Below are positions 1,709 through 31,986 of a stretch of 32,000 nucleotides of DNA, piece after piece. Positions within the stretch are counted from its first letter, which is position 1, and every line of letters begins with the position of its first letter. The notes under the pieces were generated by a model. The model was not told the DNA's origin and ran no database searches. It worked only from the letters and a program-made list of their open reading frames with translations. The translations under genes and the position numbers were made by a program. Origin of the DNA: Flavobacteriaceae bacterium (GTDB lineage: Bacteria > Bacteroidota > Bacteroidia > Flavobacteriales > Flavobacteriaceae); assembly GCA_965224465.1 (NCBI GenBank), contig OZ245049.1, forward strand, positions 3,750,001-3,782,000, read 5' to 3'.

Positions 1709-1724
1709 AACAAATAAATAAATT

Positions 1725-2417: not shown

Positions 2418-2422
2418 AAGAT

Positions 2423-12621: not shown

Positions 12622-12685
12622 AAAACAAAGAATTGTAACTCTTATTAATTAGAAAATAATATGATAACTATTAAGAATTGTTAGT

Positions 12686-14476: not shown

Positions 14477-14725
14477 ACATTAAGAGAAAATAGTGAAGAA
14501 GAAGATTTAATACCAAAAGTTTTAGACTACTACCTAACGGACCTTAATCGAAACAAAATAGATAAAACAAAAATAGGTGAGAAAGTTTTTTTGAATATTA
14601 AAACCAAAAAATTAATTGGCGAATTGCTATCTATTTCTTTGAATGATAAAAAGGCTGATTTTAAATATAAAAATGAAAGACGACCAAATGATACTATTAA
14701 CCTGTCTCGAATTTTTTGGAAATAA
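14426..14725 (+). CDS. Small ORF starting with the PG-effector leader ([17 protein letters not shown]), then divergent; possibly a decayed effector N-terminus
   Basis: The GTG start follows an in-frame TGA, as in the other junction copies. The first 17 codons are conserved, with only weak similarity afterwards (RENSEEED vs LENTDDVF). It overlaps the next ORF in another frame. Confidence 0.35.
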   Translation: MSARNVLRKGLRKKVIYTLRENSEEEDLIPKVLDYYLTDLNRNKIDKTKIGEKVFLNIKTKKLIGELLSISLNDKKADFKYKNERRPNDTINLSRIFWK

Positions 14726-14930
14726 TATCAAAGATGTAGAAATTAAGAATGGATATACAGTAGATAACTCTTTGAATAAGGGATTGATTAATTGCATCGA
14801 AATAGTCCTAACGGTTAGTGACACGAAGAATATTGATGATTTTGAGTGGGATTTTATTCAAAACAACCTGCTTTTGTACCTAAAAAAGAACGCAACATCA
14901 GTTTTTCCCTTTGTTATTAAAAAACACTAA
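14643..14930 (+). CDS. Small hypothetical ORF (95 aa); may be the frameshifted continuation of 14426..14725
   Basis: Overlaps the previous ORF by 83 nt around an A-rich stretch (aaatataaaaatgaaagacg). No recognisable motif. Confidence 0.3.
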   Translation: MIKRLILNIKMKDDQMILLTCLEFFGNNIKDVEIKNGYTVDNSLNKGLINCIEIVLTVSDTKNIDDFEWDFIQNNLLLYLKKNATSVFPFVIKKH

Positions 14931-15107: not shown

Positions 15108-15494
15108 ATGTCTTTTAAAGCAAAATTAAAAGTAGGTGGACAAGAGTACAATGTATTGTCTTGTTCTTATGAATTACATCAAGAAACTGATGCAACTGGA
15201 AGACCATCTTCTATCACTAGAGGTGGGAAAATTAGATTAACGGTTGAGTCTACAGCAGACACAAGTTTGTCTGATTGGATGTTTAATAACTTTGAGCGTA
15301 GAGACGGTTCTATTGTTTTCTTAAAAAGAGATACCGAAGCTACTGCAAAGGAATTAAAGTTTTCTGAAGGTTATATGGTGAAATATCTAGAGAATTTTGA
15401 TTCTACAGGTAAAAATCCAATGTCAGAGTCATTTATCATTTCAGCAAAATCTGTTGCAATGGGGAATGGTGAACATGTAAATGATTGGGTGTAA
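15108..15494 (+). CDS. hcp: Hcp/TssD tube protein (Bacteroidota type)
   Basis: 128 aa with the typical short Bacteroidota TssD layout: MSFKAKLKVGGQEYNVLSCSYELHQETDATGRPSS..RGGKIRLTVEST.DTSL.DWM. It lies upstream of vgrG. Confidence 0.8.
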   Translation: MSFKAKLKVGGQEYNVLSCSYELHQETDATGRPSSITRGGKIRLTVESTADTSLSDWMFNNFERRDGSIVFLKRDTEATAKELKFSEGYMVKYLENFDSTGKNPMSESFIISAKSVAMGNGEHVNDWV

Positions 15495-15934
15495 TACCAA
15501 TTACAATCCAAAATGACCGATATAAATAGTTTATTTTACGTACTAGCGTTGTTAAAAAATAGAACGATAGCTAAGGCTATCCTTAGATTTTCCGCCTAGC
15601 TATACTACCAATTACAATCCAAAATGACCGATATAAATAGTTTATTTTACGTACTAGCGTTGTTAAAAAATAGAACGATAGCTAAGGCTATCCTTAGATT
15701 TTCCGCCTAGCTATACTACCAATTAAAATCCAAAATGACCTATATAAATAGTTTATTTTACGTACTAGCGTTGTTAAAAAATAGAACGATAGCTAAGGCT
15801 ATCCTTAGATTTTTCGCCTAGCTATACTACCAATTAAAATCCAAAATGACCTATATAAATAGTTTATTTTACGTACTAGCGTTGTTAAAAAATAGAACGA
15901 TAGCTAAGGCTATCCTTAGATTTTTCGCCTAGCT
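15492..15934 (+). repeat. Tandem repeat, 4 x 111 bp (last unit truncated by ~4 nt)
   Basis: Units start at 15496, 15607, 15718 and 15829. Units 1 and 2 are identical, units 3 and 4 are identical, and the two pairs differ at 3 positions. The array starts at the hcp stop codon. Each unit carries a stem: atagcta(a)ggc, a 16-nt loop, gcctagctat. Confidence 0.9.
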
Positions 15935-16036
15935 AGAACAAAAAATAATTCTATTTCTAAACCGTCACTTGGAAATCTAATTGGTAGAACATAAAATAAT
16001 TCTATTTCTAAACCGTCTATTGGAAATGCATTTGGT
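15935..16036 (+). repeat. Tandem repeat, 2 x 51 bp
   Basis: agaacaaaaaataattctatttctaaaccgtcacttggaaatctaattggt is followed by agaacataaaataattctatttctaaaccgtctattggaaatgcatttggt. The taattggtag in unit 1 is the reverse complement of the ctaccaatta that opens units 2-4 of the 111-bp array (unit 1 opens ataccaatta). Confidence 0.85.
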
Positions 16037-16077
16037 ATAATAGCGTTTTAGCTATAGTGTAACATATCTAATAAAAT

Positions 16078-16110
16078 AAAAAGGAAGTGTTACATAACAC
16101 TTCCTTTTTT
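16078..16110 (+). terminator. Intrinsic terminator (13-14 bp perfect stem, 4-nt loop, T-run)
   Basis: aaaaaggaagtgtt-acat-aacacttcctttttt. It is flanked by an A-run and a T-run, so it could act in both directions. It lies between the repeat array and the second hcp. Confidence 0.75.
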
Positions 16111-16151
16111 GCGTTTAATTTAATTAGTTTAACAAATATAAATACTATAAA

Positions 16152-16547
16152 ATGTCGTTTTTATCACAATTAACAATAGCCGATGATACCATGAATGTAT
16201 TGCGATGTTCTTTTAACTTTGAACAAGGTGCAGATGCTGCTGGTAAACCATCACAAAGACCAAGTGGAGGGAAACTCATAATTTTAATTGAATCTACCAG
16301 TAAAACAGATTTTTTGGAATGGATGATCTCTCCCAATATGACCAAAAATGGAGAAGTTGTTTTTTATAAAAGAGATAATATGTCTAGTTTAAAAACCATT
16401 ACTTTTAAAAATGCCTATTGTTTGAGCTATCAAGAAGATTTTGATGCAGAAGGAAACCAACCTTTAAAAACACGGATTGTTGTGTCTGCAAAAGAAATTA
16501 CAGTAAAGAATACTACCTTTTCCAATAACTGGTTTGATAGAGAATAA
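16152..16547 (+). CDS. hcp: Hcp/TssD paralogue
   Basis: 131 aa, collinear with 15108..15494 at roughly one-third identity. Shared pattern: MSF....L......NVL.CS......DA.G.PS....GGK....ES...T....WM. It ends 85 nt before the vgrG start. Confidence 0.75.
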   Translation: MSFLSQLTIADDTMNVLRCSFNFEQGADAAGKPSQRPSGGKLIILIESTSKTDFLEWMISPNMTKNGEVVFYKRDNMSSLKTITFKNAYCLSYQEDFDAEGNQPLKTRIVVSAKEITVKNTTFSNNWFDRE

Positions 16548-16632: not shown

Positions 16633-18447
16633 ATGGCGCTACAAAGCAACACAACTATAATTATTAAGAGACAAGAATTTTCAAGTTTTCAAAGCCTTAA
16701 CTTACATCAGGAAATTGATGCATCCCATTTGTTAACACTTACGTTTAGAATGGACACACTTGAAGATCTAGAAGAAGAACTTGCAACCAACAGTAAAGAG
16801 TTTTTAGGGGAAACAATTTCCTTGCAAACGATTCCTGCAAATGGTTTTGAAGACCGTTATGGCGAATTGACGTTTAAAGGTATTATTACCGAAATAAAAA
16901 TCATAAAAGGGCATGAGGTAAGTGATGGTGATAAAGTAGTTATAGAGGCAAAAAGCCCCGATTTTTTAACAAATGATGGTCCGCATTTTGCGTCTTACAA
17001 CGATGTTTCCCTCTCAGAAATTATTGATAGTTCGTTTGAAGGCTATGATACTTCAAAATTAGAAGTAGACATACGCCCTCAAAACAACCCTAGTTTGCAT
17101 TATTCGGTACAGCATAACGAAAGTGCTTTTACGTATGTAAGTAGACTTGCAGCACAATACGGAGAGTGGTTCTATTACGATGGCGCGAAATTAGTATTTG
17201 GAATGCCTGGTACCGAAGACTTAGAACTCACCTATGGATTTGATTTAGTAGAGTATCAGATAGGTTTGATACCTCAATCCAACAATTACAAAATATTTGC
17301 AAATGATTATTTAACCGATGAGGTACAAGAAAAATCAACAAGCGAAACCAATGCCGGTTTAAGAGGTTTTGGAGGCTTTGTTTCTGAAAAATCAAATGCC
17401 ATTTACAGAAAAGAAACAAAAATTTGGCACAATCTTTACAGCGATACAGAAGTACAACAGCGTTTAGATACAGCAGTGGAATTACAGAAAAAAGCGATTG
17501 ATGTAAAACAAGTAAAAGTACAGGGTGTTTGTGATAATCCAGGAGTAAAAATTGGGAGCGTAGTTGTAATAGATGGGAATAGATACAGAATTATAGAGGT
17601 TACACATAGCAATAATGAAATTGGCGATTATACAAATAAATTTGAAGGAATCACCGCAGATATAAACGCATATCCATACACCAATATAAACGCATTTCCA
17701 AAAAGCGAAACACAGGTAGCCACCGTAAAAGAAAATGCAGATCCCGATGGATTGGGGCGCATAAGAGTGCAATTTCCATGGCAAGTGGAGTATAGCGAGT
17801 TAACCCCATGGGTGCGCATTGTAACGCCACATGGCGGAGCCAATAAAGGATTCCATTTTATACCAGAAATTGACGAAGAGGTATTGGTGGGCTTTGAAGG
17901 GGGGAATGCAGAACATCCTTATATATTGGGGAGTTTGTACACGGGAAATGCCAAACCCGAAGCGTTTAAAACCGACACCAACGATGTTAAAATTATAAGA
18001 ACCCGCAGCGGACACACCATTGAACTAAATGATAAAGATGGTGAAGAAAAAATAAATATCTACGATAACGAAGGAAGTATCATCACTTTTGATACCCAAG
18101 CAAAATCCTTGTATATACAAGCTACGGAGAATATTGAATTCCAAGCAAAGAATATTAAATTAAAAGCGAGCGAGAATATAGAACTAAACGCCGATCAAGA
18201 AATTAAAATAGCAGCAACGGGTAACGCATTATTAGCATCAGAGGCAGTTATTAACATACAAGCAGAAAGTGATGTTAACGTAAGTGCGAGTTCAAATATA
18301 ACCATAGAAGCCACTAGTAAAGCAAATTTTAAAGGACAAAGTATTATTGTAGAAGGGCAAACATCAGCTGAATTTAATAGTGCCCAAACCAAAATTACGG
18401 GTAGTGGAATGATTGATGTTTCAGGAGGAATGATAAAAATAAATTAA
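16633..18447 (+). CDS. vgrG: VgrG (TssI) T6SS spike protein, complete
   Basis: 604 aa with the same OB-fold signature and C-terminal beta-helix repeats as 2..1708. Confidence 0.92.
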   Translation: MALQSNTTIIIKRQEFSSFQSLNLHQEIDASHLLTLTFRMDTLEDLEEELATNSKEFLGETISLQTIPANGFEDRYGELTFKGIITEIKIIKGHEVSDGDKVVIEAKSPDFLTNDGPHFASYNDVSLSEIIDSSFEGYDTSKLEVDIRPQNNPSLHYSVQHNESAFTYVSRLAAQYGEWFYYDGAKLVFGMPGTEDLELTYGFDLVEYQIGLIPQSNNYKIFANDYLTDEVQEKSTSETNAGLRGFGGFVSEKSNAIYRKETKIWHNLYSDTEVQQRLDTAVELQKKAIDVKQVKVQGVCDNPGVKIGSVVVIDGNRYRIIEVTHSNNEIGDYTNKFEGITADINAYPYTNINAFPKSETQVATVKENADPDGLGRIRVQFPWQVEYSELTPWVRIVTPHGGANKGFHFIPEIDEEVLVGFEGGNAEHPYILGSLYTGNAKPEAFKTDTNDVKIIRTRSGHTIELNDKDGEEKINIYDNEGSIITFDTQAKSLYIQATENIEFQAKNIKLKASENIELNADQEIKIAATGNALLASEAVINIQAESDVNVSASSNITIEATSKANFKGQSIIVEGQTSAEFNSAQTKITGSGMIDVSGGMIKIN

Positions 18448-18463: not shown

Positions 18464-19177
18464 ATGCCAGGACCAGCAGCAACAATATCACACATGCACA
18501 CATGCCCTATGTATAGTGGAACAAGCCCACATACTGGCGGCCCCATTATAGGCCCGGGAGTGCCAACAGTTTTAATAGGAGGAAAACCTGCCGCAGTAAT
18601 GGGGGATCAATGTACCTGTTCGGGACCACCCGATGTAATTGTAGAAGGTGTTTCTACCGTATTAATTGGTGGGAGACCCGCAGCTACTATGGGATCAAAA
18701 ACAGGTCATGGAGGCGAAGTAAGCATTGGAAATACTACCGTACTTATTGGTACAAGATGTAGTGCTCCTACCGCAATAATGCCAGTAAGCAAAATACCTT
18801 TTCCTAAAATATCTTTTAAAGATCGTATACTAACTTCTTTGTCGGGGAATTCATTGGCAGAAGCAGAAGCGAATCAAGCTGCTTTGAGAGAAGAAGAGGA
18901 AGGTGAGCCTGAAATATATGGTGTACAGTGGATTATAGGAGAACAAACAGTAAGAGAATCTCATGTGTTTTCTGAAGTAACTGTAAGGGCTAGGGTAAGA
19001 AATATTAATGATGGTGAAAAAATTACTTTTTCTATTAAAAAACCTCTTAGCACAACGGATAATAATGGAGTTAGTACTACTTCCGAAGAAGATATTATTG
19101 AGTTATCAGGTACAGTACAAGACAAAATAGTAGAGGTAACTTGGGAAATTGAAAAATCACAGGAAGAATCTAAATAA
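18464..19177 (+). CDS. PAAR-domain spike-tip protein with variable C-terminal extension
   Basis: PAAR motifs as in 1725..2417. Identity with that copy ends at 18910. The C-terminal ~88 aa are divergent. Confidence 0.9.
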   Translation: MPGPAATISHMHTCPMYSGTSPHTGGPIIGPGVPTVLIGGKPAAVMGDQCTCSGPPDVIVEGVSTVLIGGRPAATMGSKTGHGGEVSIGNTTVLIGTRCSAPTAIMPVSKIPFPKISFKDRILTSLSGNSLAEAEANQAALREEEEGEPEIYGVQWIIGEQTVRESHVFSEVTVRARVRNINDGEKITFSIKKPLSTTDNNGVSTTSEEDIIELSGTVQDKIVEVTWEIEKSQEESK

Positions 19178-19188: not shown

Positions 19189-22100
19189 ATGGTTACGGAA
19201 GAAGTAATAAAATACCAAGAGGAAGGAGCAAAATTAGTTGATAGTAAATACACCGTAGTTGTATCAGGTTCAGGCGTGGTGAATGAAGAAAGACCAGTAT
19301 TTAAAGCATTATTACCAGGTATTAGATTGCATTTTCTTAGATATGGTTTGTTTGATAGAAACAAGGATAACGTAAGTTCGATTCGTATTAAAGATGATAC
19401 GGACGAAAAATACACAGCATCAGATACTGATGTGTCCAATGGCGACCTACAAACCACCAAAGACTTTAGAGTAATGGCTACGCTACTTAAGAAAGGATAT
19501 GTATATATTATTAATGCGGAAAATAAAAATGACTATCATGAATTAAAAGTTGGTGAATTTGGAATGCTTTACCCTATAATTTGGAATACTAAAAATTTAG
19601 AAAGTGATGGTAGAACCCCTAAAGACTTTAGAGAGATTAATGGTGAAAAATCACATTACAAACTCATTTCTAAAACAAAAAAAGAAGGTGGTAAAAAATA
19701 TTGGATAGGCTACAGCCCTGTGCAATGGTCGTACGAATTACATAAAAAAATGCTCGCTGCATCTGATGAAGATAAAAAGCAGAAGCACATGATTTTAGTA
19801 GAATGTAAAGGTATAAAAAAAGGAGAGGAAGAAGCCAATGAATATATTTTACCTTACAATAAAATAAATATAGCCTTTTATGAAGGCGAAGACACAGATA
19901 GTTTAGTAAGAAAAACGTTAAATCAAATATTTGCCACTGAAAAAAAAGAAGAAAAACGTGGTAATAATGAGCTTCTTGAAGATATGTTTATTACTCTGCA
20001 TGATCCTGTAGGCTGCCTTCATGATGTTGGAGGTGTTTTAAGTGAAAAAACTGTAGAGTTTAGAGCTTTGGTAGAAGCTATTCAATCTGGAGAAACAGAG
20101 ATTGAAGCCAGAAGAAGATATGCCAAAACTCCTCCTGAATTTGCTCCTAACCCTAGTGATAATTACAAAAACATGTTCTCACTGGCTCTGGCTAGCTATA
20201 AAATGGTGTATAGTAGTAAAGAAAATACTCAAAAATTTGATGGTGCTGAGGTAGGGTATAATTTAACAAAACGTAATCAAACTAATTTTCCATATCAACC
20301 AAATTCTAGCGCTTCGTATGAGTTTACTATTAATTCTTTCTCAAAAAGTGATTATGGAGTGATAATTAAAAAAAAAACTAATAATTACGTAGCTAATGAG
20401 CATATTGGTAGTGGGTTGCACCGTTTAAAAGTAGAGGGAATATTAGGTGTGCACCCACGAAGAAAAAAGAGAGCCCAGTTAATTAAATATCGTGACATAG
20501 TAGGTGAATTTATACAATCAGACTATTTAAAGAAGGGATTGGCCTTTTATTCTGAAAATTGTTCTGCTTACAAAATTTTTGGTATTGAAGAATTGTATAA
20601 ATATATTTTACTTTTATATACAAATCCGTATGGTATTGACCGTCATTTACTTTTAAACAAAAAAAATGATCTTGAAAAAGACGTTTATTATAGCAGTGAC
20701 CAGTGGATTGATTGGATAAATAAACAAAAAAAATTAAAAACTCCAAACAATCCCAATGACCCTTTAGACGTCTTATTGGTTCACGAAATTTCTATTGGTC
20801 AAAAATTATTAAATAAAAAGGTAGAATTATCTAATAAATTAGCCGCTGTTTTTTCTGCGAAATTAACACTGCACTCATTAAGCGAGGATTTTTTTAAATC
20901 AAAAAAAATTACAAAGGCTATCACAGGAAAAACAAACTACCAAAAAATTATTAATGAAGGCTATACTGAAATGATAGACCAGCTAAATAAAATTACGGTA
21001 ATTACAAAAAAAGGAGGTATACCTGAAAAAGTGTTTAGTTTTGGCAATACTCACGCAATAGAAATAAATGCAAAAGTATTAGGTGTAGATTTTGATCCTA
21101 ATGTAGATGTTATTATAAGAGGTCCTGATGGGAAAAATATAAAAGAATTTACTACGGATTTAATAAAACACAATAAATTAAATGGAAATAAAGCCACTGT
21201 TGCTGGTGGTGCACATGTGTTAGAAGTTGGTGACAATGTAGAAAACATAAGCAAATATGAATATGTAAGAAATAAAATTAATAAAAACGGAGCCAAACGC
21301 TTTAATCAAAAAGCATATAATGCTTTAAATTCTCGTGGATTTACAGTTTTTTTAGCGGGTTTAGAAGTGATTAATTTTTACTATGCAACTTTGGGGCTGT
21401 ATGAATCAATACGAAAGGAGGAGTCAATACTAGTTAGAGCTAAAGAAGTTATTAACACGGCCGGAATTGGAGCCGAACTAGTAGAAGCTTCCTTCCGAGT
21501 ACAAAAAGCACATTATATTGCAATAGGTGAGGAGCTTGCAGAAAGTACAGCCAAAGGTCTATCAAATAAAATTGCAATAGCAGGTGCTATTGGTGGTATT
21601 ATTACTGCTGGTATGTGTATTACAGAAGCTGTTATAGCCTTTAATAAACGTGATGTTGATGCCAGTATTGCTTGGGGATTGGCAGGTGTTGCTTTTACAG
21701 TAAGTACTGCGGCAGGTATTTGGGGAGGAACTGTTTTTTTATTATCAGGGCCTGTAGGTTGGATTGCCTTAGGGATTGGTTTAATAGGAGTGGTTTTAGC
21801 AAATGTTTTTATAGACACAGACTTGGAATTCTATTTTAAACACTTTTTATTATCCGATCATAAAAAATTACCTATTGGTAATAACAGTCCTATGGCATAC
21901 AACCGTCTTGTCTATAAAAGTATTGAGACTTTAGTAGAGAGTGAGGATGACGACATTAAAAATAGCCTAATGTATCCTGAGGATGCTATTGCTAGTTTAC
22001 ACGATCTTACGGTATGTACCAGCATTAATTACTATGTAGAAAACATGAAAATGAAATTTGCAGGCAGACGTGGTAGAAGTACGGGGTATTATGTAAGTAG

Positions 22101-22542
22101 TTTTGGTATTACTATGAATTTTAATCATTTTTTATACGATGTAAATCAATTAGAAGCAAAAGGTATGATAGTGCGTCATACCTGGGTTAATAGTATTGGA
22201 AGTAATGCAGAAGAATTTAATTTAATATTAAAAGATGCCAAAATAATAAGCATGAAAAATGGACAACAACAACTTTTAGTAATTGTAGCAATACCTTACG
22301 AAAAAAGAAAATTAATAAAAGACGATAAAGATTTAGAAATGGTACTAGCCATACGTGTAAGAATTAATAAAGAGAAAAACCATTACTTCCCTTACAGACT
22401 ACTAGACAAACCTGAACGCTATATTGGTGCTAAATTTAAGTTATATAAAAACATATACACTAATTCAGGGGAAAATAACACAGATAATCAAAATTTAGTT
22501 TTTGATACCTTAGCGAACTTAAAACTTGATAAAACATGGTAG
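19189..22542 (+). CDS. Large T6SS effector, VasX-like N-region plus glycine-zipper TM helices (putative membrane-disrupting toxin)
   Basis: 1117 aa. Motifs: LPGIRLHFLRYGL, LKKGYVYIINAEN, YHELKV, YWIGYSPVQWS, ITLHDPVG. TM/Gly-rich region at about 21340-21815 (AIAGAIGGIITAGMCI..., AGVAFTVSTAAGIWGGTVFLLSGPVGWIALGIGLIGVVLANVFI). Confidence 0.6.
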   Translation: MVTEEVIKYQEEGAKLVDSKYTVVVSGSGVVNEERPVFKALLPGIRLHFLRYGLFDRNKDNVSSIRIKDDTDEKYTASDTDVSNGDLQTTKDFRVMATLLKKGYVYIINAENKNDYHELKVGEFGMLYPIIWNTKNLESDGRTPKDFREINGEKSHYKLISKTKKEGGKKYWIGYSPVQWSYELHKKMLAASDEDKKQKHMILVECKGIKKGEEEANEYILPYNKINIAFYEGEDTDSLVRKTLNQIFATEKKEEKRGNNELLEDMFITLHDPVGCLHDVGGVLSEKTVEFRALVEAIQSGETEIEARRRYAKTPPEFAPNPSDNYKNMFSLALASYKMVYSSKENTQKFDGAEVGYNLTKRNQTNFPYQPNSSASYEFTINSFSKSDYGVIIKKKTNNYVANEHIGSGLHRLKVEGILGVHPRRKKRAQLIKYRDIVGEFIQSDYLKKGLAFYSENCSAYKIFGIEELYKYILLLYTNPYGIDRHLLLNKKNDLEKDVYYSSDQWIDWINKQKKLKTPNNPNDPLDVLLVHEISIGQKLLNKKVELSNKLAAVFSAKLTLHSLSEDFFKSKKITKAITGKTNYQKIINEGYTEMIDQLNKITVITKKGGIPEKVFSFGNTHAIEINAKVLGVDFDPNVDVIIRGPDGKNIKEFTTDLIKHNKLNGNKATVAGGAHVLEVGDNVENISKYEYVRNKINKNGAKRFNQKAYNALNSRGFTVFLAGLEVINFYYATLGLYESIRKEESILVRAKEVINTAGIGAELVEASFRVQKAHYIAIGEELAESTAKGLSNKIAIAGAIGGIITAGMCITEAVIAFNKRDVDASIAWGLAGVAFTVSTAAGIWGGTVFLLSGPVGWIALGIGLIGVVLANVFIDTDLEFYFKHFLLSDHKKLPIGNNSPMAYNRLVYKSIETLVESEDDDIKNSLMYPEDAIASLHDLTVCTSINYYVENMKMKFAGRRGRSTGYYVSSFGITMNFNHFLYDVNQLEAKGMIVRHTWVNSIGSNAEEFNLILKDAKIISMKNGQQQLLVIVAIPYEKRKLIKDDKDLEMVLAIRVRINKEKNHYFPYRLLDKPERYIGAKFKLYKNIYTNSGENNTDNQNLVFDTLANLKLDKTW

Positions 22543-23324
22543 ATGCGACTTTTAATTACAAACGCCCTATAACCCATACCCAATACAAACATGGAGATAA
22601 AGAAACCAAAAAAGGAGGATTTAGCAGAATGCTGACTATGCGTATAACAGATGACATGCATGTTATGAAAAAAAGTGATGTAGGTACTAAAGGGGGCTTT
22701 CCTTTTGCTACAGATGTTTTTTTAAAATGCCCTGTTGTTCCTAAGATAATGCCTTTATGGTTGGGTAGCCTATTTTTATTTTTATTTTTATTTTTTATTT
22801 ATCTATATCTTACACCAAGTGACAAAGACAATGGCGATTATATATTATTTTATTTAATAACTTTTCTTTCTTTTCTAGGATTTTTGTTTTTTGCAACCTA
22901 TTATTTTACGATGCCAACAAAAGAGCTTATTTTTAATAGAGCGGACGGTTTGGTTACTTTTCCTGGGTTTATGTGGTGTAAAAACATAACGATGCCTATA
23001 CATAAGATAATATTTTCTATGTCATCACCTAGTATTCAGGGAGGAGGTGCTTATATGTTGCAAATTGTACGACCAGACAGGACGTATTCCTTGTATTTAT
23101 GTACAAGGGGCTATAGTTGTTATGAAGATTTATCATCTTATTTATGGTATATGGATAAGAATAGACCATTACCTACGGGGGAAGGTTTTGATCCGTGTCG
23201 TTTACAAGATTTTGAACGTAGAAAATCTGAGGGTTTCCCTAAGCCATTATTTCCTTGTAGTTTTGAAACTCCAGAAGCTACGCTTGAACAACAGGCAGAA
23301 CGTGAGCGTATTGGCGGTTGGTAA
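22536..23324 (+). CDS. Putative 2-TM membrane immunity protein (WYMDKNRPLP family)
   Basis: The ATG overlaps the effector stop (ATGGTAG). 262 aa with two TM helices and the conserved C-terminal motif. Confidence 0.65.
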   Translation: MVDATFNYKRPITHTQYKHGDKETKKGGFSRMLTMRITDDMHVMKKSDVGTKGGFPFATDVFLKCPVVPKIMPLWLGSLFLFLFLFFIYLYLTPSDKDNGDYILFYLITFLSFLGFLFFATYYFTMPTKELIFNRADGLVTFPGFMWCKNITMPIHKIIFSMSSPSIQGGGAYMLQIVRPDRTYSLYLCTRGYSCYEDLSSYLWYMDKNRPLPTGEGFDPCRLQDFERRKSEGFPKPLFPCSFETPEATLEQQAERERIGGW

Positions 23325-23338: not shown

Positions 23339-23433
23339 AAGCAATGCATTCGCGCGGATTTAAAATCCGCGCCAGTAACTGAGTGTCTGCTAGGAATGTT
23401 TCGCGGAAAGGTTTACGGAAAAAGGTGATTTAT
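23339..23433 (+). repeat. Conserved 95-nt junction element, copy 3 (palindrome 23352-23372)
   Basis: Same element as 6309-6403 and 14382-14476. Confidence 0.85.
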
Positions 23434-26361
23434 GTATCATTAGAAAATACAGATGATGTTTTTGAGTTTTTAAGTAATGAAAAAAAAGATGGAAAAGAAG
23501 AACAATATTTTACAAATATTATAGCAGGTACAAAATTAAAAACAAGCCTATCTTACAAAGTAGATATTAAAGCAAATACACCCATAAAAGTACTTAAAAT
23601 TAAAGGAGATTACGCACAAATAAAAGTAACATCTATTACTGCAACCTTAGTTAGAGATACCGATATTAATGATAACGTAAAACCATTTAATAGCAATAAA
23701 CTTTATACTATCAAAAATCTTACTACGGTTAATAAAGCATTTAATGGTCTTGCAACTAAAGATGCCACATTCAATACAAAACAAGTAAAAGCACCAAGAA
23801 ATTGGAGAACAAATTTAAACAGAACTGTTACCTTTTACCCAAATGGCTATGGTAAAGTGATTTGGATAGAAAAAACATCTATTTCCAAAATAGCAGAAAA
23901 AATAAAAAAAGAAGCAGGTATAATTACCTCAATTATTCCTGACTATTTTTTAACAGAAGAACAAAAATACGAAACAGTTGAAAGAGAAGCCAAAACAGGA
24001 GAAAAAACTACATTATATGTAGATGTATGTAAGGCATATATCGAAGTCCCTTTTAGAACCGATGTAGAAGAAGTAACTGTAGAAAAAGAAAAAGTAGTTG
24101 ACTTACGTAAATTTAAAAAAGCAAAAGACGATAAAAAAGACCTTTGGTATAAAGTAGTATTAGATGATACAACTAGTAGCCAATGTGTAGCAGTAAAAGG
24201 CTGGGTAAAAGAAAAGGATCTTGACAAATTTAGCGCTTACGATTGGCAAAAATTTGGTTTTAAAGATCTAGACGCAGGTAATGAATACATATACTCTGTA
24301 AAAGACTTATGTAAGGCAACAGATAGTACCGATTTTGTAACCGAAATTTGGGATAAAACAATAGATACAGATGGCAATAAAGTATTAGATATACTAGAGC
24401 TTATTAGAGCCTTTAGTAAACCAGAAATAGCACAAAAACTATCTCGTTTGGTATGTAAGCACAAAAATGAATGGTCTTATACTATGGACGAAATAAAACC
24501 AGAAGTAAAAGAACTCTATGATTTTGGTATACAATTAGAAGAAGTTACAGCCGAAAAACAAAAACTAGAAACCGAAAGGGATGATAGTTTAGCCAAAATG
24601 GAAACCAAAATAGAAAATTTAATGTGGTGGGATGAGGCAAGTAAAAAAACCTACACAGCACCCGTAAAAGAAGAAGATAAAACAAAAACGAGTAGCACCA
24701 AAAGACCTTCTATGTTGCCAGAAGGTACAGTGGTAGAAGAAATACCACAAAAAGATGTTGTACCTTTAGACAATAAAACAACAGCAGTTAAACCAGATGC
24801 TAAACCAACGAAAGATAGTATACCAACGACAAGTACAACCGCTGCTCCAACACCAGAAACTAAAGTAGAAGAAAAAGAAGTGCCACCAGAACGTATGTTT
24901 CCAAGTACAAATATAGTACATCACTTTCATCCTATTGCTTGGGTGGAGCAGATGAGGTTGATATTTGAAAAACAGACGGGAGAGTGCTATTGTAATAGAG
25001 ATTTTACTGTGGAAGAAGTTACAAGAATTATCAAAAGACTAAGAAAAAATGAAAACCTTAGTGGCAATTCTATATTAAGTCATGACAACTGTAAGATAAC
25101 CAATAAATCATTTGATAAACTTACAGAAGAACTAAATAAAACCATCGCTAAATACAAAATATCACAATGTATACAAAAAATACACTTTATAACTCAACTT
25201 TATCATGAATCTGCCAGATTTACTACTGGTCTAGAATTTGATAATGGAAATTATTACAATCCTAATGGAGGACATCCTGAAGCAAAAAACAATGGTAATA
25301 TTCAAAGTGGAGATGGGCCACGGTATAAGGGTCGAGGATTTATGCAATTGACATGGAGAAATACACAAATAAAATACTTAAAATATGCTTCTAAAAATAC
25401 AGAAGGGAAATTAAAAGGGAAAACAGATTCTGAATTGGAGTTACGAAGTAATAACTATCAAAAATATATTTCTGATGATTTAGGATATGCTATGGATTCT
25501 GCAGGTTGGTTTTGGAGTAATTATAAAAAAATAGAGTTTAGTAAAAAAGAAAATAAAAATAGATATGCACATATAATAAACAAACCTTTAAATGAGGTCG
25601 CTCTAAATGAAGATAAATATTTGAGTTTAATTTCCAAATTTATCAATGGAGGTAAAAAAGGGATTAAGAAGAGAGCAAATTATTATCAAATATTAAAAAG
25701 CGTCTTTAGATATGAGGTAGATTGTATTAATAATATTGCCTCATCAAAAGAAGAAGTAAATCAATCCTTACCACCTTGGTTGAAAGTTGCTTTTGAAGAA
25801 TACAATACTCATTTAGGATATATAGAAGAAGAGAAAACTTTAAAAAATCGCATAGAAAAAGTATATTTTGGCTCAACCCAAAATAAAAGTTTGAAATACA
25901 CGGATCCATGGTGTGCTGCTTTTATAAATTATTGTTATTTAAAAGGAGGTCTATCATATAAAAATTTAACAGGGATTCAAGTTAGGGCTTTTGAATGGGG
26001 ACCGTTTAATAATAAATTTTTAATTACCAAAAGAAAAAATATTGGAGGTTGGAAAGAAGGAGAAGATTATGGTAAACCTTTTCTTGGAGCATTAGCAATA
26101 TACTCTGGAAGTCATGTAGGTTTTGTTGTTGGTAAAAATACTAGAGGCAAAATAGTTCTGTTAGGAGGTAACCAAAATGGAGTTATTGGTAATACTAATG
26201 TTGGTGGAGATGAAAGTGTTTGTTTCTCATCATACCCAGCAAATAAAATACTTTTTTACATGAAGCCTAAGGGTTTTATTGTTCCTCCTGAAATAGATGA
26301 AGAAAATTTACCTATTATAAATATTAGTAACCCAACAGAAACATTTGCCTCACTTAGATAA
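23383..26361 (+). CDS. Modular PG-hydrolase T6SS effector (GH19-like muramidase + TIGR02594/NlpC-P60-like peptidase C-terminus), intact
   Basis: 992 aa. The GTG start directly follows an in-frame TGA, and the first in-frame ATG is codon 368. SH3b-like segments ([10 protein letters not shown]...[12 protein letters not shown]), coiled-coil, PT-rich linker and [14 protein letters not shown]19 motifs: HFITQLYHESARF...GPRYKGRGFMQLTWRNTQ. TIGR02594-like motifs: PPWLKVAFEEY...DPWCAAFINYC...SHVGFVVGKN...LLGGNQNG. Confidence 0.85.
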   Translation: MSARNVSRKGLRKKVIYVSLENTDDVFEFLSNEKKDGKEEQYFTNIIAGTKLKTSLSYKVDIKANTPIKVLKIKGDYAQIKVTSITATLVRDTDINDNVKPFNSNKLYTIKNLTTVNKAFNGLATKDATFNTKQVKAPRNWRTNLNRTVTFYPNGYGKVIWIEKTSISKIAEKIKKEAGIITSIIPDYFLTEEQKYETVEREAKTGEKTTLYVDVCKAYIEVPFRTDVEEVTVEKEKVVDLRKFKKAKDDKKDLWYKVVLDDTTSSQCVAVKGWVKEKDLDKFSAYDWQKFGFKDLDAGNEYIYSVKDLCKATDSTDFVTEIWDKTIDTDGNKVLDILELIRAFSKPEIAQKLSRLVCKHKNEWSYTMDEIKPEVKELYDFGIQLEEVTAEKQKLETERDDSLAKMETKIENLMWWDEASKKTYTAPVKEEDKTKTSSTKRPSMLPEGTVVEEIPQKDVVPLDNKTTAVKPDAKPTKDSIPTTSTTAAPTPETKVEEKEVPPERMFPSTNIVHHFHPIAWVEQMRLIFEKQTGECYCNRDFTVEEVTRIIKRLRKNENLSGNSILSHDNCKITNKSFDKLTEELNKTIAKYKISQCIQKIHFITQLYHESARFTTGLEFDNGNYYNPNGGHPEAKNNGNIQSGDGPRYKGRGFMQLTWRNTQIKYLKYASKNTEGKLKGKTDSELELRSNNYQKYISDDLGYAMDSAGWFWSNYKKIEFSKKENKNRYAHIINKPLNEVALNEDKYLSLISKFINGGKKGIKKRANYYQILKSVFRYEVDCINNIASSKEEVNQSLPPWLKVAFEEYNTHLGYIEEEKTLKNRIEKVYFGSTQNKSLKYTDPWCAAFINYCYLKGGLSYKNLTGIQVRAFEWGPFNNKFLITKRKNIGGWKEGEDYGKPFLGALAIYSGSHVGFVVGKNTRGKIVLLGGNQNGVIGNTNVGGDESVCFSSYPANKILFYMKPKGFIVPPEIDEENLPIINISNPTETFASLR

Positions 26362-26365
26362 AATT

Positions 26366-27376
26366 ATGAAAATAAAGATATTCTTATTAGCACTGCTAAT
26401 TATCATTTTCTCATGTAAAGAAAATAAAAAAGAAGTACATATTCAAGAAAAAAATGTAGATGTATTTAGATTAGAAATAATCAAATCAAAAAAAAATAAA
26501 AAATTTGGGTATGCAGAGAAAACGGTTTTTAAACTTTTAAATAATAATAAAAACATTGACAGTTTATCTGTAATAATACCCTATTCTGATTGTGAAAATA
26601 ATGAAACTATATGTGGTATTAATTATTTGAATGGCTCATTCAAAGTCTCAGATTTAAACAATGATTCTTTTAAAGAAATTCAATATGCTTACCACCATTA
26701 TATAAAATCAGAACAGTTGCCTAAAAGTTTAAAAATAATATTATTTGACACAAAAGATAATAAGAGGTATTTTATTGATGGTTTAGGTGTAAATAAATTT
26801 GATGAATTAACAATTGATAATCCAATAGGACAGATAATAGAAATAAGTAAAAAAACCCCAAAAATTTTCTTTAAGGCAATGAAAAACAAATGGATTAGTT
26901 ATTCTTTTGAACATAAATTACCAAAAATAAAAGAAGAAAAAAAAGTTCAAATAATTGTTATAGAAGAAAGTTCAAATAATAAATCTAATAATTTCGAATA
27001 TGAATTATTACCAAATATTAAGACAGTGAAATTAATTGGTGGAGATAAGGAAAATATAGAAATATTATTAAAAAACAATGAAATATATAAATTTGAAAAT
27101 CCTATTTTTCAAATAGATTATCACGAAATAGAACTTATAAAGAACAAGATTGTTAGATTAAAAAACATGGACAATAAACGTAGTTATATTGAAACATTTT
27201 GGTTTTTTGATGATAAAAAAAAATCATTAATTTTATTTAAATCATATGCAGAATCATATGATTTTGGTAAAATAACTAAATATAAACTTAATAATATTAA
27301 TTACGATATAAAAACAATTAATAGTGATGCGTTTTTTGATGAGATTTATAATTCAGATAATGAAATAACAGATTAA
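26366..27376 (+). CDS. Lipoprotein, putative periplasmic immunity protein
   Basis: The ATG lies 4 nt after the effector stop (the track start 26345 is an upstream TTG overlapping the effector). Signal plus lipobox MKIKIFLLALLIIIFSC|KENKK. Confidence 0.7.
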   Translation: MKIKIFLLALLIIIFSCKENKKEVHIQEKNVDVFRLEIIKSKKNKKFGYAEKTVFKLLNNNKNIDSLSVIIPYSDCENNETICGINYLNGSFKVSDLNNDSFKEIQYAYHHYIKSEQLPKSLKIILFDTKDNKRYFIDGLGVNKFDELTIDNPIGQIIEISKKTPKIFFKAMKNKWISYSFEHKLPKIKEEKKVQIIVIEESSNNKSNNFEYELLPNIKTVKLIGGDKENIEILLKNNEIYKFENPIFQIDYHEIELIKNKIVRLKNMDNKRSYIETFWFFDDKKKSLILFKSYAESYDFGKITKYKLNNINYDIKTINSDAFFDEIYNSDNEITD

Positions 27377-27519
27377 CATTAGAGGGGATTTAATATCTAA
27401 TTATGGAAGTCGGAAAGATGTGGCAGTAAATATTAGGATACACTAGAGCTTATTAGAGCGTTTAGTAAACCGGAAATAGTACAAAAACTATCTCGTTTGG
27501 TATGTAAGCACAAAAATGA

Positions 27520-29160
27520 ATGGTCTATACTATGGACGAAATAAAACCAGAAGTAAAAGAACTCTATGATTTTGGTATACAATTAGAAGAAGTTACAGCC
27601 GAAAAACAAAAACTAGAAACCGAAAGGGATGATAGTTTAGCCAAAATGGAAACTAAAATAGAAAATTTAATGTGGTGGGATGAGGCAAGTAAAAAAACCT
27701 ACACAGCACCCATAAAAGAAGAAGATAAGACAAAAACGAGTAGCACCAAAAGACCTTCTATGTTGCCAGAAGGTACAGTGGTAGAAGAAAAACCACAAAA
27801 AGATGTTGTACCTTTATACAATAAAACAACATTAGTTAAACCAGATGCTAAACCAACGGAAGATAGTATACCAACGACAAGTACAACCGCTGCTCCAGCA
27901 CCAGAAACTAAAGTAGAAGAAAAAGAAGTGCCACCAAAACGTATGTTTCCTAAAAGCAATATAGTACATCACTTTCATCCAATTGCTTGGGTGGAGCAGA
28001 TGAGGTTGATATTTGGGGAAGGTGGTGAAATTTCTGAAATCTGTTATGCAGAAGCAAGAGTTAAGGCATTTATGAGAATGTTGCGTATTGGGGAAGGATC
28101 TGTTGGTGAAAAAGGTTATTATACTTCTTATGGAGGTCGAACGATGACTAATTTAAGTACTCGTCAAGAAACTGTATATGAGGGCTCTAGTGCTTCAGGA
28201 GGGTACCAATTTATAAATAAAACTTATTGGGGAATGCAAGGGTTTACAGTTGTGAAAAATAAAAAAGTAGGAGACGCTGATCCTAAAAAAGACCTTATAA
28301 CAAGATATAAAATACCAGATTACGAACCATTATCTCAAGATAAGTTGTGTATTATCTATATGAAACATTACGGAAAAGGGCTAATAGAGTTACTTGCTGA
28401 AGGGCAAATAGAAAAAGCTATTAGAACAAAAGCGAGTAAAATTTGGGCTAGTTTACCTAATGAAGGTATACCTTTCGAACATAAAAAAAGTAGATACCTA
28501 ATGCCAGATGGTCTTAGGTATCAACCAGCAGAACATATGAGTGATAGCTGTTTGATGAATTACCGTAAGTTTTATAGAGAAGAAGTAAAAGGCATAACTG
28601 ACTTATATTTACAACCAGGTTTTTTAAAAGAATTTGGTTTTAATTGTTGTAAAGATGATGATACTTTATCTAATAATGAGGGTGGGTGGCCTGTTAGGAA
28701 ATCTCATAATGGTCATAAAAGAAGATTTGGAAGTCCTTTTGGACCTAGAAATGGAGGTCAACATCGTGGAATTGATATGAATTTTGGTTCTGGATATGAT
28801 GATTATGGTGCGCCTGTAATAGCTACACATGATGGCGTTGTGAGAAAAGCACAAGAAAATGATGATAAAACTGAAGGAGCAGGAAGAAGAGTAACGATAC
28901 AGTCTGAAGATGGGACTTTTCAAACAAAATATTTTCATTTAAGTGTTTTTTTAGTAGATATAGGAGATAAAGTAAAAAAGGGACAAATTATTGGTGAAAT
29001 AGGTTCTTCTGCTTTTGCTAAAGAAAATGGAACTGATTGTCACTTGCATTATGAAATACATAAAAAAAATTCAGCAGGAAAAATGGAGCATTATAATCCT
29101 ACCGAAGGGAAAGCTAACACAGGAGAAAACATAGTAGATCCACAAACTTGGATTAAATAA
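27520..29160 (+). CDS. Orphan PG-hydrolase toxin module (GH104 lambda-type lytic transglycosylase + M23 peptidase)
   Basis: Homology to the full-length gene starts about 27410. A 1-nt deletion at about 27528 relative to the other copies (tggtctatact vs tggtcttatact) puts a TGA just before ATG 27520. The MDEIKPE...[12 protein letters not shown] arm is conserved. Lambda-R-like motifs: RVKAFMRMLRIGEG, SASGGYQFINKTYW, IWASLPNEG..FEHKK. M23 motifs: HRGIDMNFG...YFHLS...GTDCHLHYEI. Confidence 0.8.
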   Translation: MVYTMDEIKPEVKELYDFGIQLEEVTAEKQKLETERDDSLAKMETKIENLMWWDEASKKTYTAPIKEEDKTKTSSTKRPSMLPEGTVVEEKPQKDVVPLYNKTTLVKPDAKPTEDSIPTTSTTAAPAPETKVEEKEVPPKRMFPKSNIVHHFHPIAWVEQMRLIFGEGGEISEICYAEARVKAFMRMLRIGEGSVGEKGYYTSYGGRTMTNLSTRQETVYEGSSASGGYQFINKTYWGMQGFTVVKNKKVGDADPKKDLITRYKIPDYEPLSQDKLCIIYMKHYGKGLIELLAEGQIEKAIRTKASKIWASLPNEGIPFEHKKSRYLMPDGLRYQPAEHMSDSCLMNYRKFYREEVKGITDLYLQPGFLKEFGFNCCKDDDTLSNNEGGWPVRKSHNGHKRRFGSPFGPRNGGQHRGIDMNFGSGYDDYGAPVIATHDGVVRKAQENDDKTEGAGRRVTIQSEDGTFQTKYFHLSVFLVDIGDKVKKGQIIGEIGSSAFAKENGTDCHLHYEIHKKNSAGKMEHYNPTEGKANTGENIVDPQTWIK

Positions 29161-29189: not shown

Positions 29190-30116
29190 ATGTCTATTTT
29201 TATAAATCGAATTATTATAATTTGCACAATTATATGTTTATTTTCTTGTAAAATTAATGAGAAAGAAAAAAATGAAGGTGTCAAAATTCAATCAGATTTA
29301 CAAACATCTTCTAAAGTTACTTCAGAAAAAAAAACTAATACAGAATTTGTAACATACCTGTATTCAAAGAGAAAGTCGGATGGGGAAGGTGAAGAACACA
29401 CAATGCAAGAATTAAAAATACAATGGAATGATAGTCTTAATATAAAATTTAAGATAGTCATGAAAAACCTGATGTGTGAAATGAAAGATAAAGGAGAAGC
29501 TTCACTAATAGGAAAAAACACTTATCAAGTAAAAAATAATTCAGTTATAAAACAATTAAAATTTGATAATAATAAGAATGAAGTAGAGTTAGTTTGTAGC
29601 TATGGTAAGTATCAAGGTGAATGTGATCCTATGCAGCAATTGTTAATGACAACAACTTCTTTTACTGGTAAAAGTGAGTTGAGAAAAGATTTTTTGGAAA
29701 AGGAAGAAGCTATTACATATGAAACTATTTATGAGCTTAAAAAGAGGAAGTTTTCAACAGATTGTTCAAGTGATGATTATGTTTTCTTTTTAGTTGCTGG
29801 ACAGTTTATAACAAAAAATATTTTTTTTAATTCACGACTTAAAAGAATTAATGAGACAGAGTATTATATTTATTTTTCGCCACCATTATTAGCCCCTGTA
29901 CCAAGTAGTTTAAATGATGCCGCTTCTTTTTCTTTGAGTAAACCAATAGGTAAGATTGTTAATAATACAGAAGGTCAAATACAGTTTGAATGGTATGGTT
30001 TTTATAATAGAAAAACAAAAAAAAGAGAGTTTAAGCAAAACCCTTTTACAAATAAAATAGAGAATGGTTCTATTGTTTTAAAATGGTGTGATATAGGTAA
30101 TGTCGATGGTTTTTAA
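29190..30116 (+). CDS. Lipoprotein, putative periplasmic immunity protein
   Basis: Signal plus lipobox MSIFINRIIIICTIICLFSC|KINEKEK. It starts 29 nt after the toxin stop. Confidence 0.7.
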   Translation: MSIFINRIIIICTIICLFSCKINEKEKNEGVKIQSDLQTSSKVTSEKKTNTEFVTYLYSKRKSDGEGEEHTMQELKIQWNDSLNIKFKIVMKNLMCEMKDKGEASLIGKNTYQVKNNSVIKQLKFDNNKNEVELVCSYGKYQGECDPMQQLLMTTTSFTGKSELRKDFLEKEEAITYETIYELKKRKFSTDCSSDDYVFFLVAGQFITKNIFFNSRLKRINETEYYIYFSPPLLAPVPSSLNDAASFSLSKPIGKIVNNTEGQIQFEWYGFYNRKTKKREFKQNPFTNKIENGSIVLKWCDIGNVDGF

Positions 30117-30228
30117 TCCCCGATCCCGCCAGTTCAATGTTTTTAAGTTAAGAATTTAATCATTTAAAAATTAGTATTTTAAATTTACTTTAATCAAGTA
30201 TACATAAATAGCACAAAAACTATCTCGT

Positions 30229-31986
30229 TTGGTATGTAAGCACAAAAATGAATGGTCTTATACTATGGACGAAATAAAACCAGAAGTAAAAGAACGCTGT
30301 GATTTTGGTATACAATTAGAAGAAGTTACAGCCGAAAAACAAAAACTAGAAACCGAAAGGGATGATAGTTTAGCCAAAATGGAAACCAAAATAGAAAATT
30401 TAATGTGGTGGGATGAGGCAAGTAAAAAAACCTACACAGCACCCATAAAAGAAGAAGATAAAACAAAAACGAGTAGCACCAAAAGACCTTCTATGTTGCC
30501 AGAAGGTACAGTGGTAGAAGAAATACCACAAAAAGATGTTGTACCTTTAGACAATAAAACAAAAGCAGTTAAACCAGATGCTAAACCAACGGAAGATAGT
30601 ATACAAACGACAAGTACAACCGCTGCTCCAGCACCAGAAACTAAAGTAGAAGAAAAAGAAGTACCACCAAAACGTATGTTTCCTAAAAGCAATATAGTAC
30701 ATCACTTTCATCCAATTGCTTGGGTGGAGCAGATGAGACTTGTTTTTGGAGAGGGTGGCGGAGATTGTGAATCTCTTATTTGGGGAAATAAAGTAAGTTG
30801 TGAATTTAGAAAACGAGTAATTCAAATATCTAAACGTCTTGAATGCGATCCTAATCATTTAATGGGAGCTATGGCATTAGAAACTGGAGGGAAATTTGAC
30901 CCTAAGGTCGATAATGGTTTAGGTAAAGACAAAGATGGTATTGGTTACATCGGATTAATTCAGCTTGGAAATGATGCTATAAAAGATATGAATAGGAATT
31001 ATTTTCTACATAGGGCAAAAATTAAAAAGAAAGATTTAAGAGCAATGTCTGCCGTAGAGCAATTATGCTATGTAGAATATTATTTAGCCAAACATAAAGG
31101 TAAACTTAAAACCTTAGCAGATTTTTATTTAGCAATACTTTGGCCAGATGCAGTAGGTCACGGTAATGAACCTAATTATATTGTTTTCGATGATGAGGCT
31201 AGTGGTAATAAGAAAAGAGCATATTACTCAAACCCTACGTTTTTTAGAGAAGATGATGAGTTTAAGAAAAATAGTAAGGGAAAAATATACGAAAGACATG
31301 GTAAAACAGGAGGTAAAACGTATGTATGGGAAATAGCTGAAGCCATACAAGAATGGTATGATAAGGGAGTGCCTGAAAAAAACACTTCTAGTAACTGTAC
31401 TTGTAATACAAATTGCTCATGTTGTAAATGTATTGATTTAACAAATAAGGTTATTTGGATAAGTCAGTTTAACAAAAGTGAACGTAGAAGTAATGGCACT
31501 ATGAAAACAGATGGATGCTGGAGAACTTCCCAAAAATTATTAATTGATGCAGGCTTAAGTAAAACTTCGGGTTATAAAACAGGGATGATTATAACAGCAT
31601 TAGAGGATGATGCTCATACTTCTTTATCTTTGACAAAGAGAGTAAAAGATGGTGTCGATTATATTGACTCTGAACTAGAAAAAGGAAATCCTGTCTTAGT
31701 TGGTCTAAATCATACCATTAACTATAGACGCAATGGTAAAATAATTAATGCAGACTCCTCACTAGGAGACCCAGGAACTACAGATCATTATGTGGTTGTC
31801 ATAGGTAGAGGATGTGAAAAAAATAAAGTGTATTATCGTTTTTATGAAGTAGGTACAAGTTGGGCACATTATGGGCAAAACTCTAGAAATAAATTATTTT
31901 TAGGAAGTGACTTTTCTTTAAAGGGAAGTCCTGGAAATAATAAAGAAAAAAAATATACAGTAAGTCAAGTACGAAAAAATCAATAA
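30229..31986 (+). CDS. Orphan PG-hydrolase toxin module (SLT-like transglycosylase + papain-fold Cys peptidase/amidase)
   Basis: Homology to the full-length gene starts at about 30206, directly after an in-frame TAA. The first ATG is 30265 (MDEIKPE); the track start is TTG. The arm is conserved up to [15 protein letters not shown]-like motif: HLMGAMALETGGKFDP...GYIGLIQLG. Candidate Cys/His pair: TDGCWRTSQ ... GTTDHYVVVIGRG. Confidence 0.75.
   Translation: MVCKHKNEWSYTMDEIKPEVKERCDFGIQLEEVTAEKQKLETERDDSLAKMETKIENLMWWDEASKKTYTAPIKEEDKTKTSSTKRPSMLPEGTVVEEIPQKDVVPLDNKTKAVKPDAKPTEDSIQTTSTTAAPAPETKVEEKEVPPKRMFPKSNIVHHFHPIAWVEQMRLVFGEGGGDCESLIWGNKVSCEFRKRVIQISKRLECDPNHLMGAMALETGGKFDPKVDNGLGKDKDGIGYIGLIQLGNDAIKDMNRNYFLHRAKIKKKDLRAMSAVEQLCYVEYYLAKHKGKLKTLADFYLAILWPDAVGHGNEPNYIVFDDEASGNKKRAYYSNPTFFREDDEFKKNSKGKIYERHGKTGGKTYVWEIAEAIQEWYDKGVPEKNTSSNCTCNTNCSCCKCIDLTNKVIWISQFNKSERRSNGTMKTDGCWRTSQKLLIDAGLSKTSGYKTGMIITALEDDAHTSLSLTKRVKDGVDYIDSELEKGNPVLVGLNHTINYRRNGKIINADSSLGDPGTTDHYVVVIGRGCEKNKVYYRFYEVGTSWAHYGQNSRNKLFLGSDFSLKGSPGNNKEKKYTVSQVRKNQ

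Follow-up and report, generated by a model that had tools for sequence, protein, structure and literature searches.

A truncated WHIX-family effector gene and candidate orphan toxin cassettes in a Bacteroidota type VI secretion region

Overall organization of the locus

Here we analyse a 32,000-nucleotide (nt) stretch of a Flavobacteriaceae bacterium genome (GenBank assembly GCA_965224465.1, contig OZ245049.1, positions 3,750,001 to 3,782,000), hereafter the window, in which an auxiliary region of a type VI secretion system (T6SS) carries four copies, termed A to D, of a predicted peptidoglycan-targeting effector gene. Gene B (23383–26361, plus strand; identical in sequence to the NCBI-annotated P0161) is a reading frame of 992 open codons with a GTG start. 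It encodes 24 borrowed residues, the distal part of what we assign below to a WHIX secretion domain, and GH19-like and CHAP-like putative toxins. The 5′ portion of the WHIX gene is missing from B, and the four copies probably form a reserve of toxin cassettes.

The copies share a constant region that stops at one motif (24919–24954 in B, plus strand). Its coding sequence occurs exactly four times in the window, at 7887, 24919, 27967 and 30700, and had no matches in 100 shuffles. Upstream of the motif, the arm of copy A (6309–7923) is 98.0% identical to gene B DNA over 1615 nt, that of copy C (27421–28015) 96.5% identical over 595 nt and that of copy D (30197–30737) 96.9% identical over 541 nt. 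In B coordinates the arms end at 24955, 24967 and 24956, that is, 0–4 codons past the motif, and beyond these ends identity is at the random level of about 25–40%. The initial annotation had reported four motif copies with similarity ending within a few codons and four different enzyme sets following; both statements hold. Codon differences between the arms are non-synonymous to synonymous at about 3:1, from small counts, a ratio that would be compatible with weak constraint.

Copy A (6309–9302, plus strand), previously regarded as a short C-terminal copy, in fact spans the same ~1.6 kb as B. It is a truncated WHIX gene like B, but a poly-A tract that differs by 2 nt (A8 versus A7-G) shifts its frame, and its toxin module comprises PG_binding_1, an M15-like stretch (read by eye, unscored) and a phage lysozyme. 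Cassette C (27421–29160, plus strand) consists of a 595-nt WHIX 3′ arm, in which one nucleotide is deleted at 27526, followed by lambda-lysozyme-like and M23 domains; its open reading frame (ORF; 27520–29160) is identical to P0007. Cassette D (30197–31986, plus strand) has a 541-nt arm followed by a lytic transglycosylase and a C39-like peptidase, and its ORF (30229–31986) is identical to P0005. The three annotated proteins P0161, P0007 and P0005 are encoded on a single contig of 5,241,564 bp. The PDB entries 9jg8, 9jdd and 9udh match toxin module D alone, not the arm; we found no paper on these entries.

The toxin modules (7923–9302, 24955–26361, 28003–29160 and 30736–31986) each pair a glycosidase with a peptidase in tandem, and the toxin ORFs are open for 378–477 codons. 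One candidate lipoprotein immunity gene, encoding 308–343 residues, accompanies each two-enzyme module. Those downstream of A (9253–10254), B (26345–27376, with the lipobox LIIIFSC) and C (29190–30116), all on the plus strand, are mutually unrelated. By comparison, ‘double-blade’ WHIX effectors have the domain flanked by toxins, one at either end, and come with two immunity genes, whereas the window modules have tandem enzymes and a single immunity gene.

Domain layout and start of gene B

Downstream of its first 24 codons, gene B encodes beta-rich domains, an EF-hand-like loop and a conserved element (residues ~25–368; 23455–24486), a region that follows the family HxEVF strand. A helical hairpin (residues 368–420) and a disordered Pro/Thr/Lys linker (residues 432–497) come next (24484–24918) and make up most of the arm common to the orphan cassettes. 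The motif is then followed by the toxin module (24955–26361), with a GH19/chitinase-like muramidase preceding a CHAP-like peptidase; all these features lie on the plus strand. An AlphaFold model of residues 1–529 (mean predicted local distance difference test score, pLDDT, 76.7) shows beta domains, the helical hairpin and the disordered linker, with the motif region forming a confident strand and helix. The model thus bears out the helical and linker segments of the five-part layout proposed initially. The two SH3b-like segments of that layout were not recovered by hidden Markov models (HMMs), as Pfam SH3 has no match in B even at an E-value of 10. The sole fold match of the model is a weak one to SH3 (probability 0.21), the model does contain small beta barrels, and SH3_3 matches in relatives map upstream of the equivalent of the B start.

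The leader of that layout is part of a 118-nt junction repeat (23339–23456, plus strand), which at gene B holds a GC-rich hairpin (23352–23372) and the GTG start and is composed of the first 24 codons plus 44 nt upstream. The repeat is present at three sites in the window (6309–6426, 14382–14499 and 23339–23456), each just 3′ of a VasX-type immunity gene. Homology to full-length WHIX genes begins at its 3′ edge (23456; B residue ~25). Before residue 159 the only start candidates are two GTGs (23383 and 23425), both within the repeated leader, and the first ATG is codon 368. Residue 368 is correspondingly the first Met after the gene B start (P ~0.0015, given 1.8% Met in neighbouring ORFs), so the Met-free region of about 360 residues noted initially is real. 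Met residues are present, by eye, in the equivalent region of the relative P0017; the Met-free stretch is lineage-specific and not a family trait.

The hairpin is a perfect one, GCGCGGATTT(A/T)AAATCCGCGC, at 6322–6342, 14395–14415 and 23352–23372, in surroundings of 31% GC. At every site a VasX-type immunity gene ends shortly before it and the leader GTG follows about 10 nt further on; termination, regulation or the marking of a recombination site are possible roles. Promoter and terminator scans of the window gave results at chance level, and neither Rfam families nor tRNA genes were detected in it. We considered whether the leader might be the N terminus of an intact neighbouring gene and rejected this, as 14382–14930 is itself a mosaic with the C-terminal remnant of a 607-residue gene (see below).

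A family with variable C termini

A word-indexed protein search with B alone returned only paralogues from the same genome, which suggested a genome-restricted family. An exhaustive HMMER search overturned this idea, yielding 127 cluster representatives. About 80 of the 127 carry the motif [VF][YWH]HFHP[IV]AF[VI]E[QH]M[KR], located 600–1100 residues from the N terminus and followed by 160–460 residues. When 73 representatives clustered at 50% identity were compared pairwise, 92% of pairs were related before the motif and 9% after it, and the post-motif regions fell into 15 clusters. Across the family the domains that follow the motif include M23, CHAP, GH19, GH24, pesticin, GH108 with PG_binding_3, YkuD, SLT and DUF5675.

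A genome scan with the motif identified 74 loci, in marine Bacteroidota and in Pseudomonas, Pantoea, Buttiauxella and other Proteobacteria. The scan pattern ended in AF and the motif of the window genome ends in AW, so this genome lies outside the scan set. In P. siliginis the family gene follows TssM, PppA, PpkA, VgrG and a Sel1 protein. The window genome itself has at least 16 motif-bearing ORFs with varied pairs of cell-wall enzymes. These comparisons support a polymorphic, predicted peptidoglycan-targeting effector family in which the motif marks the junction between a constant region and swappable toxins. The view of the motif as a demarcation point of the polymorphic-toxin kind, first proposed from the window alone, is upheld by the variable C termini found in other genomes.

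The constant region and motif correspond to WHIX

WHIX, a T6SS secretion domain in two parts that is marked by a WHxxxH motif, occurs fused to toxins that nearly always target peptidoglycan (Fridman et al. 2025, PLoS Biol). In the same work it was proposed to cap the C-terminal tail of VgrG, with the WHxxxH half and region 2 forming a spike-binding cavity; in V. alginolyticus the second region spans residues 271–476 and the domain ends at residue 476 (W471–F476). No WHIX structure appears to have been deposited. Direct searches with B residues 1–529 against Pfam, NCBIfam and PDB sequences gave nothing significant, nor did the AlphaFold model find a PDB match by Foldseek at E ≤ 0.001. Aligned with the V. 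alginolyticus prototype (WP_005373349.1; sequence taken from S1 File of Fridman et al. 2025), the family profile scored an hhalign probability of 99.7% (E 2.7e-26), and the prototype is collinear with Pseudomonas family members (E 1e-44 to 1e-25), its residues 443–477 falling on the motif. In this alignment S-L-W-H-Y-W-P-F(476) of the prototype pairs with V-H-H-F-H-P-I-A, such that HHFHPI corresponds to WHYWPF 471–476, and KHKNEW of B corresponds to KHPTDW. The toxins are related as well: that of B is GH19-like and 34% identical to the prototype toxin (E 1e-14), with an additional CHAP/TIGR02594 domain.

The family profile also matches A. dhakensis TseP-like proteins (~E 1e-57), and B itself matches the TseP-like P0166 (E 1e-10), with TseP 460–550 aligning with B 268–364. 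The experimental N/C split of TseP at residues 603/604 coincides with the motif (VWHFSPIG). We therefore place the motif at the C-terminal end of WHIX, because the prototype and TseP alignments and the 603/604 split all fall on it, and on sequence comparison assign the constant region of B to the distal part of this secretion domain. The initial annotation recognised neither the N-terminal region nor the motif; its central claim of novelty fails by its own standard, because both the trafficking region and the motif were already known.

TseP shares with the family the elements WHGGIH, HLEVF, an EF-hand loop, KHSSEW and VWHFSPIG, in the same order, and has VgrG as its carrier. It differs in standing as a single gene, without orphan cassettes behind it, and in carrying one pesticin-like lysozyme (Liang et al. 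2021; Wang et al. 2025, eLife). The N domain of TseP is reported in the same studies to be a Zn-dependent amidase; this activity cannot apply to gene B because B lacks those residues. The likenesses to the WHIX effectors of V. alginolyticus and A. jandaei (Awe1) comprise WHxxxH in region 1 and a region 2 ending in W/Y-H-F/Y-x-P-hydrophobic; C-terminal peptidoglycan toxins, mostly chitinase/GH19-like, pesticin or lysozyme; a position adjoining spike genes; and a downstream immunity gene with a signal peptide. By contrast, Bacteroidota members carry ~350–500 extra residues within the domain (SH3, beta domains, EF-hand loop, helical hairpin and Pro/Thr linker), many have two tandem enzymes after WHIX rather than one per side, orphan cassette arrays follow them, and gene B is without region 1.

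In the parts of its text and supplements available to us, the WHIX paper does not mention Bacteroidota (T6SSiii) members. Nor did we find internal insertions, strict PAAR linkage, post-WHIX tandem enzymes or orphan arrays at the WHIX end in those parts or in further publications naming WHIX. We also considered P. chlororaphis Tse1 and rejected it; Tse2 of the same strain, judged only by its description (‘M23 with EF-hand’), may be a WHIX member.

Gene B is truncated relative to full-length genes

Full-length relatives are longer at the N terminus by ~320 residues, which include NxWHGGxHxE...YSNxFxLIQH...FYSLYxHL and an SH3_3 domain. In P0014, a 1047-residue protein of the same genome that is 94% identical to B, residues 322–842 align with B 9–528 and WHGGIH lies upstream. 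The WHxxxH motif is absent from gene B and present in P0014 and in 42 Bacteroidota loci. The WHIX-like part of gene B begins at the counterpart of P0014 residue ~344 and V. alginolyticus residue ~308, directly past the HLEVF strand with which the M23-like half ends, and it keeps WHIX region 2 (V. alginolyticus 271–476) minus its first ~37 residues. The long copies A and B have lost the first ~343 codons, that is, the WHxxxH half, and B cannot be called intact, as it was initially, when every full-length relative has this half. Gene B is thus without half of the domain described as forming the spike-binding cavity. Having lost the WHxxxH half and taken a borrowed 24-codon start after a VasX pair, A and B are most likely silent or crippled cassettes that could not be loaded. 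The other components of an effector locus are in place: B has its peptidoglycan toxin and downstream lipoprotein gene, and two Hcp, two VgrG and two PAAR genes are present in the window.

A PAAR gene lies directly upstream of the full-length WHIX gene in 41 of 41 Bacteroidota loci; this count includes one locus (L007) in which the PAAR match overlaps the WHIX gene start by 8 nt and was missed by the script. By contrast, the Proteobacteria loci examined had no PAAR match, and VgrG precedes the WHIX gene there. The Bacteroidota PAAR proteins are ~150–230 residues long with a C-terminal extension (L001–L043, L056, L063 and L075). How the effector might be loaded had seemed not to be evident from the window. 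At the level of the family, WHIX binds the VgrG C-terminal tail, and secretion by this route was shown experimentally for Awe1 and TseP only. Going by gene order, the protein may be loaded through PAAR rather than through the VgrG tail in T6SSiii.

Cassette arrays in other loci

Motif sites are clustered in 18 of 75 loci, all from Bacteroidota and spread over many genera. Each of these has two to four sites, with one full-length gene followed by one to three short-armed orphans. The orphans keep 11–293 in-frame codons before the motif, their arm always ends at the motif, and each has its own downstream gene. In a near-identical strain (locus L075) the order is PAAR, a 1264-residue WHIX gene, immunity gene, a 420-residue orphan with an 83-nt arm, immunity gene and IS66; IS66 copies flank the array. 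The toxin behind the full-length gene of this strain (P0176) is 100% identical to P0177, a short ORF of the window genome, and the window-genome orthologue of the L075 WHIX gene (P0012/P0002) carries a different toxin. These identities would fit, without proving, replacement by recombination at the arm.

The poly-A tract in the WHIX gene varies in length between copies. It is A8 and out of frame in copy A (6872–6879), A7-G and in frame in B (23902–23908), A9, by our reconstruction, and out of frame in the frameshifted P0012/P0002, and A10 and in frame in L075 (~11520–11530). This variation could reflect phase variation, transcriptional slippage or homopolymer sequencing error.

Surroundings of the WHIX-family genes in the window

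Two parallel T6SS auxiliary modules occupy the window, and each runs into a WHIX-family gene (A or B). Upstream of B, on the plus strand, lie VgrG (16633–18447), PAAR (18464–19177), a VasX_N-type effector (19189–22542) and its immunity gene (22536–23324), such that the effector–immunity pair separates PAAR from gene B. The paralogous module (11–6252) likewise contains VgrG, PAAR, a VasX_N-type effector and an immunity gene. Between the modules, two Bacteroidota-type Hcp (TssD) genes (15108–16547, plus strand) mark the T6SS auxiliary region. Identity to T. geojense (Tenacibaculum) is 92% for Hcp and 67% for VgrG. The spacer between the hcp/tssD genes (15495–16037) holds a 111-nt unit repeated four times (99% identity) and then a 51-nt unit repeated twice.

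At 12679–14367 lie the 3′ part of a VasX_N-type effector gene and its immunity gene, 95–96% identical to 21630–23324; with this orphan C-terminal copy, the VasX-type effector would also have a spare cassette. Next to it, 14426–14930 is a mosaic of remnants, in which ORF 14426–14725 opens with the shared 24-codon leader and ORF 14643–14930 corresponds to the last ~95 residues of a 607-residue gene that precedes hcp in Tenacibaculum geojense (L018 2823–4646). An IS66-family transposase fragment lies on the minus strand at 10913–11434, and a 157-nt direct repeat is found at 10701–10857 and 10899–11055.

Discussion

We consider it likely that copies A to D are a store of toxin–immunity cassettes for full-length WHIX genes elsewhere in the genome, with B a truncated remnant. 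The full-length protein consists of an M23-like WHxxxH half, lineage-specific inserts with a second WHIX half ending in xHFHP(I/V)AF, and one or two peptidoglycan hydrolases. By analogy with Aeromonas Awe1 and TseP, the WHIX module would load the protein onto the spike; the hydrolases would then reach the target periplasm, and the lipoprotein encoded downstream would protect the producer. The motif stands at the junction of delivery domain and toxin because it is the last structural element of WHIX. Orphan cassettes keep 83–600 nt of the WHIX 3′ end, including the motif, and homologous recombination within this segment would replace toxin and immunity gene together. The functional acceptors would be found elsewhere in the genome, as P0014 and the P0012/P0002 gene.

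Several points weigh against this interpretation. The Bacteroidota profile matches the Vibrio prototype directly with a weak 12.4 bits, so that the link between B and the proteobacterial WHIX region 2 is a weak one, made mainly transitively through full-length relatives. Recombination is deduced here from the arrangement of arms and toxins, with no exchange seen directly, and P0177 may be a piece of a frameshifted gene rather than a genuine orphan. Homopolymer errors in a long-read assembly could account for the frameshifts in A and C, and the codon differences between the arms are not numerous enough to establish relaxed selection. With 992 open codons and a gene annotation, B could be expressed. 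In the case of TseP, VgrG2 binding and weak secretion are reported for the isolated C domain (Liang et al. 2021; Wang et al. 2025), so loss of half of WHIX need not abolish delivery.

The behaviour of TseP-C lends some weight to a different reading, in which gene B is a functional, shortened effector that starts at GTG 23383 or 23425 and is loaded through contacts with VgrG or PAAR, with the VasX-type effector or with a full-length WHIX partner. The window would then hold a live weapon rather than a store. The intact ORF of B overlaps its lipoprotein immunity gene in an operon-like manner, as is typical of effector–immunity pairs, the truncated junction is kept in both paralogous clusters, and the B model folds with the motif strand included. 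Two relatives (P0030 and P0066) align from query residue 28 and so start near the start of B, but these may be fragments from short contigs. Against this reading, the cavity-forming WHxxxH half is absent, the only start candidates lie in the repeated junction element, the sister copy A is frameshifted, and B does not follow PAAR as all 41 full-length Bacteroidota genes do. We regard a functional gene B as unlikely. A further reading takes the repeats as decaying pseudogene debris of a duplication of the T6SS cluster and of IS66 activity, with no toxin exchange and with a boundary that reflects old fusion sites. The frameshifts in A and C, the IS66 fragment and other remnants in the window, the ratio of codon differences in the arms and the IS66 copies around the L075 array would all suit such decay. 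It is very unlikely, however, given that the same layout recurs in 18 loci from many genera with the arm always ending at the motif, that the long toxin ORFs have stayed open and are paired with intact lipoprotein genes, and that an identical toxin stands behind a full-length gene in one strain and in a short ORF in another.

The cassette store resembles Rhs (PxxxxDPxGL) and CdiA (VENN) systems, in which a motif likewise marks the variable-toxin junction and orphans keep an arm of the constant region and their own immunity gene. The constant regions are unrelated, however, and the boundary coincides here with the close of a spike-loading domain rather than with the Rhs cage plug or the CdiA pretoxin domain. 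A further difference is that all WHIX-family toxins here are predicted to act on periplasmic peptidoglycan, and we see no sign of autoproteolysis at the motif. The poly-A variation invites a broader and more speculative proposal, which we hold to be rather improbable: that WHIX genes of marine Bacteroidota form a toxin-switching system, in which a PAAR-linked acceptor is re-armed from silent cassettes and poly-A slippage gates its expression, with the truncated long copies acting as donors that also replace internal domains. If true, slippage at the level of DNA or of transcription would make a T6SS weapon phase-variable.

Gene B carries a caution for annotation, as a long open ‘effector’ gene may be a truncated remnant without half of its secretion domain. 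The window genome offers a compact natural library of peptidoglycan hydrolases and their presumptive matching inhibitors. More broadly, the WHIX class, described in 2025 from Proteobacteria, extends to the separate T6SSiii machinery of Bacteroidota, where the strict order of PAAR and WHIX points to a possible change of loading partner. Orphan cassettes are anchored there on the C-terminal end of WHIX, a mode of diversification known for Rhs and CdiA and so far unreported for WHIX.

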